Position numbers and translations under genes: made by a program
The notes under the pieces: model-generated
The model's database searches: none
Told to the model about the DNA's origin: nothing
What the model saw: only the letters and a program-made list of their open reading frames with translations
Shown: positions 902 through 34,801 of the stretch, in pieces
Layout of the letters: each line of letters starts with the position of its first letter
Position numbering within the stretch: the first letter of the stretch is position 1
Assembly: GCA_019120295.1 (NCBI GenBank)
Contig: DWVI01000004.1
Location: 102,201 to 166,200, forward strand
Origin: Candidatus Onthoplasma faecipullorum
GTDB taxonomy: Bacteria > Bacillota > Clostridia > Christensenellales > UBA1242
Direction: 5' to 3'
Length of the DNA: 64,000 bases

Positions 902-2222
<1,321 letters not shown>

Positions 2223-4370: not shown

Positions 4371-5312
4371 TTATTTAAATATTTTTGCAACAAATTTGTT
4401 TCCTAAAAGTATAACCATTATAATTGTAATTATTAGAGATAAAGCATAGTTAAAATATATTGGAAAATGAAATATATCATAGTAGGCAAAAAGTTTTATG
4501 AAAAATCCATGTAAGAGATAAATAGAGTATGAATTATTATATTTTGATATAAATGAACATTCTTTGTTTGGAATAAGTACTATAACTGAAAATATTATTG
4601 CTAGGGCAAGTAATAACATTCTAGACCTATCTAGTATAGTGTAATTTGCATTGTTATAAGAGTATGAACCATATAATGCAAGCCTATTAGTGTTATATTT
4701 TATTGCCAATATGGAAGATATAATAAGTAAAATTAAAAACAATAGTTTTATAATAATTTTAGTTTTTCGAGTGGTTGAATTAAATTTATTTTCTAAAACT
4801 CTATACGAATTTTTAAAATAAACGCCTAGGATAAAAAATGGTAAAAACACAAATGTTCTAGAAAGGGAATATCTATATCCAACGTCATCTAAATATCCAA
4901 TAAGTAAACTTATTATTACGGATATGAGTAATATAGTAATTTTAAGATACTTATTTTTTACGTTTATGATTGGTAAAATCAACAAGTATATTGCAGAACT
5001 AAACAAATACCAAAGTAACCAATATGGTTGGTAAAATTGCATTGTTAAGTTATTGTGTAATATGTAATTTTCAAATAATATATACAAAACTTGAAAAATC
5101 ATATAGGGCAAAATGAATTTATTTAACAAATTCTTTATTTTAAATTTAGAGAAAAAACCAAATATAAATATAAAAAATGGCATATGGAAAGAATATATCC
5201 ATCTGTAAATTGCTCCGTTGGTGTCAAAAAGTTCTAACAAATGAGCAAAAACAACAAAAAAGATTAGCAAAAATTTTATATTATCGAATTTATATAACCT
5301 AACATTATCCAC
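4371..5312 (-). CDS. Acyltransferase family 3 membrane protein
   Basis: 313 aa and polytopic. The N-terminal FDNIKFLLIFFVVFAHL and FHMPFFIFIFGFF motifs are typical of acyltransferase_3. Confidence 0.7.
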   Translation of the reverse strand: MDNVRLYKFDNIKFLLIFFVVFAHLLELFDTNGAIYRWIYSFHMPFFIFIFGFFSKFKIKNLLNKFILPYMIFQVLYILFENYILHNNLTMQFYQPYWLLWYLFSSAIYLLILPIINVKNKYLKITILLISVIISLLIGYLDDVGYRYSLSRTFVFLPFFILGVYFKNSYRVLENKFNSTTRKTKIIIKLLFLILLIISSILAIKYNTNRLALYGSYSYNNANYTILDRSRMLLLALAIIFSVIVLIPNKECSFISKYNNSYSIYLLHGFFIKLFAYYDIFHFPIYFNYALSLIITIIMVILLGNKFVAKIFK

Positions 5313-5403
5313 TTTTTAATTATAAAGTATTTTGAGTTGCATTTCAACCATATTAACGCCCCAACAAAACATTTAATAGAGAATAACACCTTTTAAAGAT
5401 ATA

Positions 5404-5429
5404 AACAAAAAACTAGCCTAACGCTAGTT
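5404..5429 (-). terminator. Terminator-like hairpin
   Basis: AACTAGC / GCTAGTT stem followed on the minus strand by TTTTTT. Confidence 0.5.
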
Positions 5430-5434
5430 ATGTG

Positions 5435-5524
5435 TGGTAGTCCCAAGGGGCGAGTAGCGTAAAAAAACATACCCCAATGGGTATGTTTTAGCGTAACGAG
5501 TAACCCCTAGGGGTTCGATTCCCC
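5435..5524 (-). pseudogene. tRNA-Glu-derived fragment: 3' acceptor/T-stem copy with a hairpin insert of about 50 nt in the T-loop position, plus an inverted T-arm
   Basis: 5435-5450 (tggtagtcccaagggg) is identical to the 3' end of tRNA-Glu at 5552-5567. On the minus strand it reads GGGGTT[insert]CCCCTTGGGACTACCA. 5510-5524 is a T-arm (ggggttcgattcccc) in the opposite orientation. Confidence 0.6.
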
Positions 5525-5527
5525 ATT

Positions 5528-5549
5528 AAAAAATAGCACGCGTGTGCTA
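5528..5549 (-). terminator. Terminator immediately after tRNA-Glu
   Basis: TAGCAC / GTGCTA stem followed on the minus strand by TTTTTT, 2 nt after the tRNA CCA end. Confidence 0.6.
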
Positions 5550-5551
5550 TA

Positions 5552-5626
5552 TGGTAGTCCCAAGGGGAATCGAACCCCTGATCCCACCGTGAAAGGGTGG
5601 TGTCTTAACCGCTTGACCATGGGACC
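5552..5626 (-). tRNA. tRNA-Glu (anticodon UUC), CCA encoded
   Basis: Manual cloverleaf: acceptor GGTCCCA/TGGGACT, anticodon arm CCACC-CTTTCAC-GGTGG, T-arm AGGGG-TTCGATT-CCCCT, 75 nt. Confidence 0.9.
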
Positions 5627-6150
5627 GCGTGCCGACATCTCGGCTTTGTAATCGTTTTGCTTGTCGCAAAACTTCATTTGTGCCGAATGTCGGCACGTAT
5701 CCCACTGCGTGATATTCATCACTTGTGGGAGCCCTTGTAATTTTGCTTAAAATACTTTAGCTATTGCTAGGTTGCTTATTTCACGGCGCAACCGTTAGTC
5801 CTTTGCTCGGTTGCTCCTTAATTCCCACTGCGTACCTTACGGCACTCGTGGGAGCCCTGATGAACCCCATTTCGACTATGTCTTATGGGGACCCCTGTTT
5901 TAATCGACGTTGTAATCGTTTTGCTTATCGCAAAACTTCATTTGTGCCGAATGTCGGCACTTTTATGAAGGACAACCGCAGGTTTTCCTTCATGGCTTCT
6001 TTTCCTAATAGGTTTTGATTGAATGATTTTTATATGAGTCGAATAATGGGTACCCTACAAATGTTGGATAACACGCAGTAGGGAAAAGGAGTGGTCGACC
6101 AAAAGGTCTATATTCGAGCTAGCAAATTGACAATGGGTCGTACCACGACG
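5627..6150. ncRNA. ORF-free, G+C-enriched, hairpin-dense spacer between the two tRNAs; candidate structured RNA(s) or tRNA-associated element, strand unresolved
   Basis: Contains two copies of a 51 nt module (5646-5696 and 5910-5960, 1 mismatch). Hairpin families occur at 5701-5734, 5824-5857 and 5863-5895, and inverted at 6048-6083. The track ORFs here overlap tRNAs and hairpins and look spurious. Confidence 0.45.
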
Positions 6151-6234
6151 TGGTGGCGATGGCTCTCTTTGAACCTTGATTATCTGCCAACAAAGTTGTC
6201 AGGGAGATGCGTTGGTTCTCTTTGCCATCGCACC
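6151..6234 (-). pseudogene. tRNA-Met-derived 84 nt rod-like hairpin ending in CCA (degenerate tRNA copy or tRNA-like minihelix)
   Basis: The 5' GGTGCGATGGC and 3' GGTTCAAAGAGAGCCATCGCCACCA ends resemble the ends of tRNA-Met (GGCGATGTGGC ... GGTTCGATTCCACCCATCGCCACCA). The interior folds as one long stem, not a cloverleaf. Confidence 0.55.
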
Positions 6235-6238
6235 TTAA

Positions 6239-6314
6239 TGGTGGCGATGGGTGGAATCGAACCACCGATCTATCGGGTATGAACCGATCGCTCTAACCGC
6301 TGGGCCACATCGCC
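6239..6314 (-). tRNA. tRNA with CAU anticodon (elongator Met, or the Ile2 lysidine type), CCA encoded
   Basis: Manual cloverleaf: acceptor GGCGATG/CATCGCC, anticodon arm ATCGG-TTCATAC-CCGAT, T-arm GGTGG-TTCGATT-CCACC, 76 nt. The G1-C72 pair argues against an initiator tRNA. Confidence 0.85.
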
Positions 6315-6479
6315 TTATGCGAATTTATTATATCCAATAAAATAGTCATTGTCAAGTTATTTTTACAAAATTTTAGTATTTTTAGGTTATTATGTAACGT
6401 TTTTATGAAATTTTATTGTTATAAGCTAAAATAATCGCATAATTTCTTTGTTGTGTTTTGCGGTGGTGTGTTTTTGGTT

Positions 6480-34061: not shown

Positions 34062-34397
34062 ATGAAACATTTTATGAAATTACAAAATGAACCTTTTACA
34101 AATATAAAAAAGGGTTTAAAAACTATTGAAATGAGATTGTTTGATGAAAAACGCCAACAAATTAAAGTGGGAGACACGATTGAATTTACAAACATGTTTA
34201 GTTCAGAAAAATTAAATGTAAAAGTGATAGGGTTACACAAATTTAAAAATTTTGAAGAACTTTATTCCCATTTTAATAAAAAACAATTAGGTTATAAGCA
34301 AACGGAAATAGCAAGTCCAAACGATATGAACCAATATTATACTAATGAAGACATTGAAAAATACGGTGTCGTCGGAATTGAAATTAAAACTTTTTAA
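34062..34397 (+). CDS. ASCH domain protein
   Basis: 111 aa. MKLQNEPFTNIKKGLKTIEMRLFDEKRQQIKVGD matches the ASCH N-terminal pattern. Confidence 0.6.
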   Translation: MKHFMKLQNEPFTNIKKGLKTIEMRLFDEKRQQIKVGDTIEFTNMFSSEKLNVKVIGLHKFKNFEELYSHFNKKQLGYKQTEIASPNDMNQYYTNEDIEKYGVVGIEIKTF

Positions 34398-34433
34398 TCT
34401 AAAATTACTAAAAATATTATTGTACAAAATATT

Positions 34434-34439: not shown

Positions 34440-34454
34440 TTTGTACAAATATAT

Positions 34455-34726
34455 GCTTCCGTGGTGTAATGGATAGCACACGCAATACATCTGTGCGTTT
34501 TAATCGTTTACTCGAAACTCGTAAACTTCATTTATGCTTGATGTATTGCGTAACCCCACTTCGACATTGTCTTGTGGGGACCACAGAATAACCCCACTGC
34601 AACATTCGTTTTGTGGGGACCCCAGAATAACCCCACTGCAACATTCGTTTTGTGGGGACCCCGTGAACCATTGCGCTAAAAGATTTGCACGATTTCGAAT
34701 TATTCTAACATTTTAATATCAAATAT
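34455..34726 (+). ncRNA. Candidate structured RNA/element: a copy of tRNA-Arg positions 1-26 fused to about 245 nt of hairpin modules, directly upstream of the intact tRNA-Arg
   Basis: 34455-34480 is identical to 34727-34752. 34481-34550 is homologous to 5629-5696 with compensated stems. Three hairpins of the CCCCAC..GTGGGGACC(CC) family follow, and GAACCATT (34665-34672) matches the tRNA anticodon-stem 3' side. Confidence 0.5.
34585..34662 (+). repeat. Perfect tandem duplication of a 39 nt hairpin unit
   Basis: agaataaccccactgcaacattcgttttgtggggacccc occurs twice, back to back. Confidence 0.9.
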
Positions 34727-34801
34727 GCTTCCGTGGTGTAATGGATAGCACAATGGTCTTCGGAACCATTAGTTCGGGTTCAAATCCTGACGGAAGCACC
34801 A
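34727..34801 (+). tRNA. tRNA-Arg (anticodon UCG), CCA encoded
   Basis: Manual cloverleaf: acceptor GCTTCCG/CGGAAGC, anticodon arm ATGGT-CTTCGGA-ACCAT, T-arm TCGGG-TTCAAAT-CCTGA, 75 nt. Confidence 0.88.

Follow-up and report, generated by a model that had tools for sequence, protein, structure and literature searches.

A tRNA operon spacer of modular, covarying repeats in a gut Christensenellales genome: a candidate family of structured RNA domains

BOX elements of Streptococcus pneumoniae consist of boxA, a variable number of boxB, and boxC, with the end modules in a fixed order; they occur in high copy number, and their copies are near-identical within a genome. No transposase of their own is known, nor any precise abutment to tRNA 5' ends. 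REP/BIME repeats (repetitive extragenic palindromes and bacterial interspersed mosaic elements) are near-identical palindromic units with a conserved GTAG head and an associated RAYT (IS200/IS605-like) transposase. RNAs released from tRNA-containing precursors include 3'ETS-leuZ and the metZWV internal spacer of Escherichia coli, and MALAT1/mascRNA, in which RNase P generates the 3' end. ROOL and GOLLD are Bacillota non-coding RNAs of unknown function, often found beside tRNA genes and possibly co-transcribed with them (PMC5737381; PMC12286853); ROOL has a mean length of 581 nucleotides (nt) and adjoins tRNAs (PMC5737381). Here we set against these systems a 64-kb stretch of DNA (the window) from Candidatus Onthoplasma faecipullorum, a member of the Christensenellales from chicken gut. 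Repeats fill the 612-nt spacer between its tRNA-Met and tRNA-Glu genes, both on the minus strand (5627-6238; locus 1), and this spacer is best read as built from an uncatalogued family of autonomous structured RNA domains of gut Christensenellales.

Four domain types recur: the core module, the X/Y hairpin, the H1/H2 domain and the L domain. Copies of the core module in the window, scored with model R1, are:

5627-5700, minus strand: core module copy 1, complete (61.8 bits, E=1.7e-11)
5890-5967, minus strand: core module copy 2 (43.2 bits, E=2.8e-7)
34482-34551, minus strand: core module copy 3 (53.5 bits, E=1.2e-9), with P1 and P2 unlike those of copies 1 and 2

An earlier reading, made from the letters of the window (the sequence-only reading), had described a modular repeat architecture with a 51-nt module at 5646-5696 and 5910-5960, the two copies differing at one g/a loop base. 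The architecture, the coordinates and the single mismatch are all confirmed, and the repeat actually reaches 57 nt (5640-5696 vs 5904-5960, 95% identity). The third copy, absent from that reading, has different stems and identical loop sequences. Read on the tRNA strand, the "51-nt module" is a two-helix motif, P1 – AAAUGAAG – P2 – CGAUUA – P1', or more fully 5'-(P1 5' arm)-yAAAAUGAAG-UUU(P2)AAA-CGAUUAaaaag-(P1 3' arm)-3'. A conserved A-rich internal loop, 5'-AAAUGAAG…CGAUUAaaaag-3', thus joins a closing helix (P1) to a hairpin (P2), both of them variable. The sequences are to be read as RNA of the minus strand, except for an inverted hairpin (6048-6083) that heads a plus-strand variant element. 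Copy 1 has a P1 of 16 bp with palindromic arms and a P2 of 7 bp (predicted minimum free energy -38.2 kcal/mol), and its 3' end lies 1 nt short of tRNA-Glu base +1. The long-range pairing suggested earlier for this copy is borne out, with 5628-5638 perfectly complementary to 5687-5697 (inverted repeat I12). Copy 2 has its 5' arm as a local hairpin, followed by AAAUGAAG, P2 and CGAUUA, and is without the P1 3' arm. Degenerate patterns for the module and for the hairpins described below are expected only 0.10 and 0.11 times, respectively, per shuffled window, and chance is therefore ruled out. Kink-turn, loop E and T-loop were considered for the internal loop and gave no canonical fit in a by-eye comparison with their consensus sequences.

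The module family is uncatalogued. At the gathering threshold, Rfam 15, whose families include ROOL, GOLLD, T-box, riboswitches and small ribozymes, matched tRNAs only, in the whole window and in 18 related loci, and at E<=10 no match in 5300-6400 overlapped a module except for tRNA-derived ones. Phage and plasmid collections gave no match to the whole spacer (blastn, distant mode), and literature searched by topic and by the core sequence string yielded no description. Four viral-contig pattern matches were rejected; they are without P1 and P2 and look like chance.

We scanned one genome per species for two conserved stretches separated by a variable gap. This returned 76 loci, of which about half are chance matches and ~38 are clear homologues (loci outside the window carry L numbers below). 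The homologues come from gut assemblies labelled Ca. Onthoplasma, Christensenella/Christensenellaceae, or "Clostridia" or "Bacilli" (rabbit, sheep, deer, buffalo, chicken), and up to 8 exact-core loci occur within one genome assembly. A scan of metagenomes with the same core pattern gave 63 loci, of which only L119, L147 and L156 (ENA assemblies) are convincing; L147 is the window's own strain, and the weaker model matches look like chance. In an unfitted MAFFT alignment of 36 modules, compensatory double changes were identified in 14 of the 18 consensus pairs. Paired cells make up 91.4%, compared to 35-50% after sliding the partners by one to three columns, and both partners have changed in 181 cells, where shuffling gives 56.7±6.6 (none of 500 shuffles reached 181). 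The X hairpin is 96.4% paired across homologues, and the H2 hairpin covaries too in the homologue alignment. The earlier observation that stems vary while hairpins are kept is thus true covariation, across about 40 homologues. Model R1 also brought up additional copies whose cores are altered. Two of the three cases (L019 and L034) have GAAA/UGAUUA in place of GAAG/CGAUUA, a change that keeps the first P2 pair; the L018 variant is GAAGUCC…GACGAUUA.

The sequence-only reading took the plus strand, which is wrong. On the strand carrying the tRNAs, G-U pairs outnumber A-C mismatches as follows:

Core module: G-U 22, A-C 11
H2 hairpin: G-U 12, A-C 2
X hairpin: G-U 12, A-C not tallied and counted as 0 (5 unpaired cells, type unlisted)
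Total: G-U 46, A-C 13 (binomial p=2e-5, the sequences being non-independent)

For example, the G-U pair that the X2 inner stem GUGCC/GGUAC has on the minus strand becomes an A-C mismatch when the plus strand is read. The minus strand is most likely the functional one, and this bias points to a strand-specific RNA rather than a symmetric DNA hairpin as in REP/BIME.

The tRNA genes around the spacer form an operon on the minus strand, in the order consensus promoter, tRNA-Met, spacer, tRNA-Glu, terminator:

6327-6355, minus strand: sigma-70-type promoter, TTGACA / 17-nt spacer / TATAAT (12/12 consensus positions)
6239-6314, minus strand: tRNA-Met (CAU), the operon's first gene
5552-5626, minus strand: tRNA-Glu (UUC), the operon's last gene
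5533-5550, minus strand: intrinsic terminator, a hairpin then a T run, directly after tRNA-Glu

The terminator scan found no minus-strand terminator inside the 612-nt spacer. Given the promoter upstream and the terminator downstream, the spacer is predicted to be part of the tRNA-Met/tRNA-Glu transcript, and most simply all three would form a single primary transcript. Searches for tRNAs or tRNA-like cloverleafs (ARAGORN, Rfam RF00005) gave nothing beyond the four annotated tRNAs.

Clustering at tRNA genes, which had been put forward for checking, was found both in the window and beyond it. Every copy in the window is at two of the three tRNA loci. Elsewhere we used 53 model matches in 318 kb of DNA that was chosen by motif and not by tRNAs, and in which tRNA genes make up about 1% of the sequence. 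Eleven of the 53 modules end 0-7 nt before base +1 of a same-strand tRNA (Glu four times, Gln twice, plus Lys, Gly, Leu and Ser), and two more abut an incomplete tRNA, either cut by the contig end (L030) or truncated (L033). A type-1 module (the arrangement with an H1/H2 domain, see below) lies directly before tRNA-Glu in the tRNA-Met/tRNA-Glu spacer in the window, L028, L045 and L048, and the P1 differences among these four are compensatory (e.g., CACU/AGUG vs CGAU/AUCG), which speaks for retention over a long time. In related genomes this spacer is 177-290 nt long. The sequence-only reading had allowed that the hairpins could be a generic, genome-wide REP-like repeat with neither tRNA association nor covariation; both were found. 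No recurrent protein family was identified within 2.5 kb of 38 copies, the sole recurrent context being orthologous nrdD-nrdG synteny. In L038, L061 and L064 an X hairpin and a module occupy the nrdD-nrdG spacer (anaerobic ribonucleotide reductase / activase), with the nrdG start codon immediately after the P1 3' arm.

The other domains of the spacer, and the related hairpins of a second locus, are:

5701-5734, minus strand: X1 hairpin
5824-5857, minus strand: X2 hairpin (GGGCUCCCAC…GUGGGA)
5863-5895, minus strand: Y1 hairpin (GGGGUCCCCAU…AUGGGGUU), of the X/Y family
34551-34669, minus strand: three tandem Y hairpins, 5' of module copy 3 on the minus strand
5736-5822, minus strand: L domain and linker (GGAGCAACC…GGUUGC…GCAACCUAGCAAUAGC)
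5965-6012, minus strand: type-1 5' domain before copy 2, with H2 (AUGAAGGA…GGUUGUCCUUCAU) at 5965-5993 and the H1 tract GGAAAAGAAG at 5994-6012 (inverted repeat I8)
6048-6150, plus strand: inverted type-2 variant element (model R1: 20.7 bits, E=0.034)
6151-6234, either strand: imperfect palindrome of 84 nt directly after tRNA-Met, in which a duplicate of the tRNA-Met 3' end (TGGTGGCGATGG) is combined with the complementary sequence

The X and Y hairpins are present at the coordinates given previously. They had been described as two families; the hairpins are real, and X and Y align as one family rather than two, with the form GGGNUCCCAC-loop-GUGGGR (alignment consensus GGGcUCCCAC-loop-GUGGGA). 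A covariance model of this family (R2), built from the window's hairpins and six from other genomes, matches exactly seven hairpins in the window (E 9e-12 to 5e-5):

Locus 1: 5693-5742 (minus), 5816-5857 (minus), 5858-5902 (minus), 6041-6090 (plus)
Locus 2: 34547-34591 (minus), 34592-34618 (minus), 34624-34669 (minus)

The Y hairpins at the second locus, also recognized earlier, form a tandem array at 34551-34662 (39-nt period, 2.9 copies). This is not a CRISPR array: the repeats are head-to-tail without spacers, and locus 1 is without tandem periodicity. In L094 and L091 (Logan contigs of the same strain, run ERR3414586) the short-read assembly breaks inside the 39-nt Y array, and these repeats thus fragment metagenome assemblies.

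Modules occur in two arrangements. In type 1, the module is preceded on its own strand by two hairpins, the purine-rich H1 (often …GGAAAAGAAG) and H2 (AUGARGGRaaa…GGUKKYCCYUCAU). The idea that the 3' strand of H2 (CUUCAU) pairs with core AAAUGAAG was rejected, there being no covariation. A small open reading frame (ORF) in H2, with AUGAAGGAAAAC… as its start, was also rejected; frames and starts are not conserved, and the start is AUU or ACU in L017, L028 and L051. In type 2, at least one X/Y hairpin is followed by aaaaGGAGC, which opens a P1 "frame" closed by GCGAC-GU, and the GGA…GAC ends of the frame could form tandem G·A pairs. The frame can hold either the canonical core or an alternative insert, such as the L domain or the insert of the 6048-6150 element. 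In the latter element, the X3 hairpin (6048-6083) is followed by aaaaGGAG, the frame helix GUGGUCGACC (6091-6100) / GGGUCGUACCAC (6135-6146) and GACG (6147-6150), with the core replaced by a non-canonical insert. Just upstream of X3, at 6019-6047 on the plus strand, is a weak promoter-like site (TTGAAT / 17-nt spacer / AATAAT, 9/12) that, if active, would transcribe convergently with the tRNA operon. A homologous L domain likewise lies between two X hairpins in L030, and the X-L-X-module composite precedes tRNA-Glu in the window and tRNA-Gln in L030. The 84-nt palindrome at 6151-6234 has an antisense copy of the tRNA-Met 3' end (TGGTGGCGATGG) at its start and the complement at its finish; it is predicted to fold as one long hairpin on both strands and gave no tRNA call.

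The earlier proposal of a mobile or recombining module is upheld for recombination, by a 57-nt internal duplication in locus 1 and by a replacement between strains of one species; no transposition signature or transposase was found. Three features carry this part of the evidence:

5627-5759, minus strand: strain-polymorphic block of 133 nt (linker, X1 and module copy 1), absent in L082, L083 and L084
34452-34481, plus strand: duplicated 5' tRNA-Arg fragment (4 nt upstream plus tRNA bases 1-26), identical to 34723-34752
34727-34801, plus strand: intact tRNA-Arg (UCG)

Among contigs that encode an identical neighbouring protein, the spacer has two forms. L081 and L086 have the window form, and L082, L083 and L084 carry the 14 nt GAGAGUUGCGACGU in place of 5627-5759 (a 119-nt difference), and with these 14 nt the L-domain frame is closed immediately 5' of tRNA-Glu. 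Neither form can be derived from the other by a simple insertion or deletion, so a replacement is required, for example by gene conversion from another locus. Tandem duplications of modules occur in L008, L018 and L051. The L018 array (1300-1800, plus strand) repeats the module four times at intervals of ~130 nt and runs antisense to the ORFs on either side; its canonical cores alternate with the variant core AAAAGAAGUCC…GACGAUUAAAGAGG. No transposase, integrase or RAYT-like gene was identified among the neighbours of sampled copies, the Pfam-labelled neighbours in the window's own strain included, in a search that did not extend to the whole genome, and the sampled neighbourhoods show no target-site duplications of transposon size. 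The sequence-only reading had set a recombining module against a single collinear RNA. This opposition does not hold: 5627-6040 is co-linear and co-oriented with the tRNA-Met/tRNA-Glu operon, and the two are therefore not mutually exclusive.

The account that we prefer, with about even confidence, is a structured modular spacer RNA that is co-transcribed with the tRNAs and turns over by recombination, with release of a stable RNA by RNase P as the preferred mechanism. The domains would be transcribed together with the tRNAs. With only 0-7 nt between the end of the last P1 helix and tRNA base +1, a cut by RNase P at the tRNA 5' end would set free the spacer, or just the last element of it, and leave a 3' end that is fully base-paired and, we propose, exonuclease-resistant. 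The conserved internal loop would serve as the working surface, where a protein probably binds or an RNA docks. The sequences themselves show the family, its covariation, its fixed position relative to tRNAs, the operon signals and the strain polymorphism; that the RNA would be transcribed, released by RNase P and stable, and might act in trans, is what they lead us to propose. The array would evolve by duplication and by ectopic recombination between repeated modules and between tRNA genes, and not by classical transposition. Release by tRNA-processing enzymes, with RNase P setting the 3' end, would parallel the tRNA-operon spacer RNAs and MALAT1/mascRNA; those RNAs each come from a single locus and have no covarying motif in many copies. 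Christensenellales are gut bacteria that are heritable and associated with health, and for which, to our knowledge, almost no RNA biology has been described. The preferred account would give them a multi-copy, strongly covarying RNA family that is absent from Rfam, fused to the tRNA 5' processing site and reshuffled between strains. It would add a new case to the functional RNAs encoded in tRNA operon spacers, and would offer a tractable system in which to study 3' ends defined by RNase P and folding switches that act during transcription.

The possibility of such a switch was raised earlier for copy 1, in which each P1 arm could instead form its own hairpin. Both arms are palindromic (GUGCCGA-CAU-UCGGCAC and GCCGA-GAUG-UCGGC), as are those of other tRNA-abutting type-1 copies with unrelated sequences (GUGGGCA…UGCCCAC, GACCGAAAUUUCGGUC, UGAGC…GCUCA); both-arm palindromes occur in at least four unrelated sequence versions among the tRNA-abutting type-1 modules. 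The would-be loop residues of the local hairpins still covary, preserving the long-range helix. At their centres the two arms complement each other and are not identical (CAU/AUG in the window, CUU/AAG in L028), so that an origin of the arms as a target-site duplication of a palindrome was rejected, and the long-range helix itself is under selection. For copy 1, the predicted energies are -38.2 kcal/mol for P1 plus P2 and -28.3 kcal/mol for three local hairpins. The long-range helix would therefore be favoured by about 10 kcal/mol at equilibrium, and any switch would be kinetic, during transcription. Copy 2, without a 3' arm, is predicted to form the local hairpin. The switch thus has some comparative backing from palindromic, covarying arms, and its equilibrium form does not stand; in the preferred account, the arms of tRNA-abutting type-1 copies would allow an alternative two-hairpin fold during transcription.

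Several points weigh against a co-transcribed, functional spacer RNA. About three quarters of the copies are not beside a tRNA; these are in tandem arrays, in the nrdD-nrdG spacer, or beside the terminators of convergent genes. Orientation relative to neighbouring ORFs is mixed, promoter-like sites upstream of non-tRNA copies are equal on the proposed and the other strand (6 vs 6 of 29), and modules not abutting a tRNA show a weak strand bias (G-U 17 vs A-C 10). The module of locus 2 is antisense to tRNA-Arg and without a detectable promoter of its own. Copy 2 is without half of P1 and shares its spacer with an inverted element, which decay or shuffling would fit equally well. The homologues were fetched with an exact 20-nt core pattern, and core invariance in the alignment is therefore partly by construction. 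Finally, accumulation of the spacer RNA and binding at its loop are predictions from sequence.

The main and serious rival, somewhat unlikely in our judgement, is that the modules are selfish or neutral structured intergenic repeats of the pneumococcal BOX, REP/BIME or miniature inverted-repeat transposable element (MITE) kind. These would spread and shuffle in genomes and persist in tRNA or operon spacers and terminator regions where insertion is tolerated, with RNA or DNA hairpins that matter solely for the element's own propagation or stability. High copy number (up to 8 exact-core loci per assembly), modular composition with variable hairpin number and tandem arrays, both orientations within one locus, and presence or absence of blocks between strains would all be expected of such repeats. 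So would copies in operon spacers (nrdD-nrdG) and directly after convergent genes' terminators, with no conserved neighbour gene and no promoter enrichment. However, the stems differ between copies of one genome while the loops are fixed, the opposite of recently copied MITE/REP units, and different species show compensatory changes at one and the same position in the genome. The sampled neighbourhoods hold no transposon-size target-site duplications and no transposase or RAYT-like gene, and an extra explanation would be needed for the 11 of 53 copies that abut tRNA base +1 precisely and on the same strand.

The likeness to BOX is one of layout. BOX elements and these modules alike lie between genes in many copies, fold strongly and are modular, with a variable internal hairpin number, and either may be co-transcribed with neighbouring genes; here it is X/Y hairpins that vary in number 5' of a terminal core module. 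The sequences appear unrelated and the host clade is another, and, unlike the near-identical BOX copies, stems here vary and covary while loops are fixed. As in REP/BIME, short palindromic extragenic hairpins are clustered in both orientations, whereas a conserved GTAG head is lacking (GTAGGG occurs only in X3), stems differ and covary, and no RAYT gene was identified near sampled copies (the whole genome was not searched). If the selfish-repeat explanation is true, a BOX-like modular repeat system would be documented in a new clade, and such repeats matter in practice, as metagenome assemblies break at them.

A further reading, which we consider distinctly unlikely, takes the core module as a new class of tRNA-leader RNA element. 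A bistable helix-loop-helix would be fused to the RNase P site, with the A-rich loop binding a factor or docking on the tRNA body. Maturation of the tRNA 5' end would thereby be tied to a signal, or a stable regulatory RNA would be set free, and the module would be exchanged between tRNA loci with the tRNA genes as recombination handles.

Less probable again is that the modules are cargo or ends of small tRNA-targeting integrative elements, i.e., integrase-less remnants flanked by attachment (att) sites and resembling cis-mobilizable elements (CIME), with the tRNA duplications as attL/attR scars. Direct repeats of tRNA parts do bracket the element at two places. At locus 2, the 30-nt repeats 34452-34481 / 34723-34752 enclose a 241-nt stretch (34452-34752 including the repeats) with the inverted module and the three Y hairpins; the best plus-strand promoter-like site near tRNA-Arg (34378-34405) is upstream of the fragment and not of the intact gene. 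In L057 (4050-4460, minus strand), ~50-nt direct repeats, comprising the last 21 nt of tRNA-Asn and the terminator, bracket one X hairpin and one module, an arrangement that appears to be att-like or a tandem duplication. In L033 (7000-7560, minus strand) the module abuts a truncated 5' half of tRNA-Arg(ACG), and a complete tRNA-Arg(ACG), with a different acceptor stem, is ~340 nt downstream; locus 1 holds duplicated 3' ends of tRNA-Met and tRNA-Glu (repeats D3, D4). As in integration scars and CIME, tRNA-end direct repeats thus bracket a foreign-looking segment at locus 2 and in L057. In contrast to those, the bracketed segments are tiny (88-340 nt) and non-coding, no integrase was identified in or next to them or near any sampled copy, and most modules have neither flanking tRNA fragments nor such repeats. 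Covariation and the G-U bias speak for selection on folding of the RNA, for which att sites have no need, and ectopic recombination between tRNA genes would account for the scars equally well.

It is very improbable that the plus strand is the working one, with the module as stacked intrinsic terminators that block antisense or convergent transcription. Locus 1 does have four plus-strand hairpin-plus-T sites against 1.4 expected, coinciding with the P1 arms and P2, and several homologues lie directly after a convergent gene's own terminator. These four candidates are weak, however: their T tracts are short and broken by conserved non-T bases (TAATCG, CTTCA) that a terminator would not need. 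The G-U vs A-C bias favours the minus strand, on which the spacer has no terminator, and no plus-strand gene runs into locus 1.

That the 612-nt spacer is one large ornate RNA of the ROOL/GOLLD type, as its length near the ROOL mean of 581 nt and its tRNA-adjacent position could suggest (PMC5737381), is effectively refuted: it matches none of their covariance models (no Rfam model matched even at E<=10), its architecture is a chain of independently recurring hairpin domains with an internal duplication and an inverted element, and the spacers of relatives are just 177-290 nt, with a 119-nt difference between strains.

On the 3' side of tRNA-Glu, three terminator-like hairpins follow in succession (5405-5550), with a 16-nt inverted copy of the tRNA-Glu T arm at 5509-5524. 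A second tRNA-Glu 3' end (TGGTAGTCCCAAGGGG) is identical over 16 nt (5435-5450 vs 5552-5567) and lies inside the 30-nt repeat D3 (5421-5450 / 5538-5567). This arrangement looks like a recombination or integration scar. Further away, a 435-aa ORF on the minus strand (902-2209) consists mostly of collagen-like G-X-T triplets (GPT/GAT), with a non-repetitive C-terminal domain, and resembles BclA-type exosporium or surface proteins. It forms an island of 56-60% G+C in a genome of ~32% G+C.

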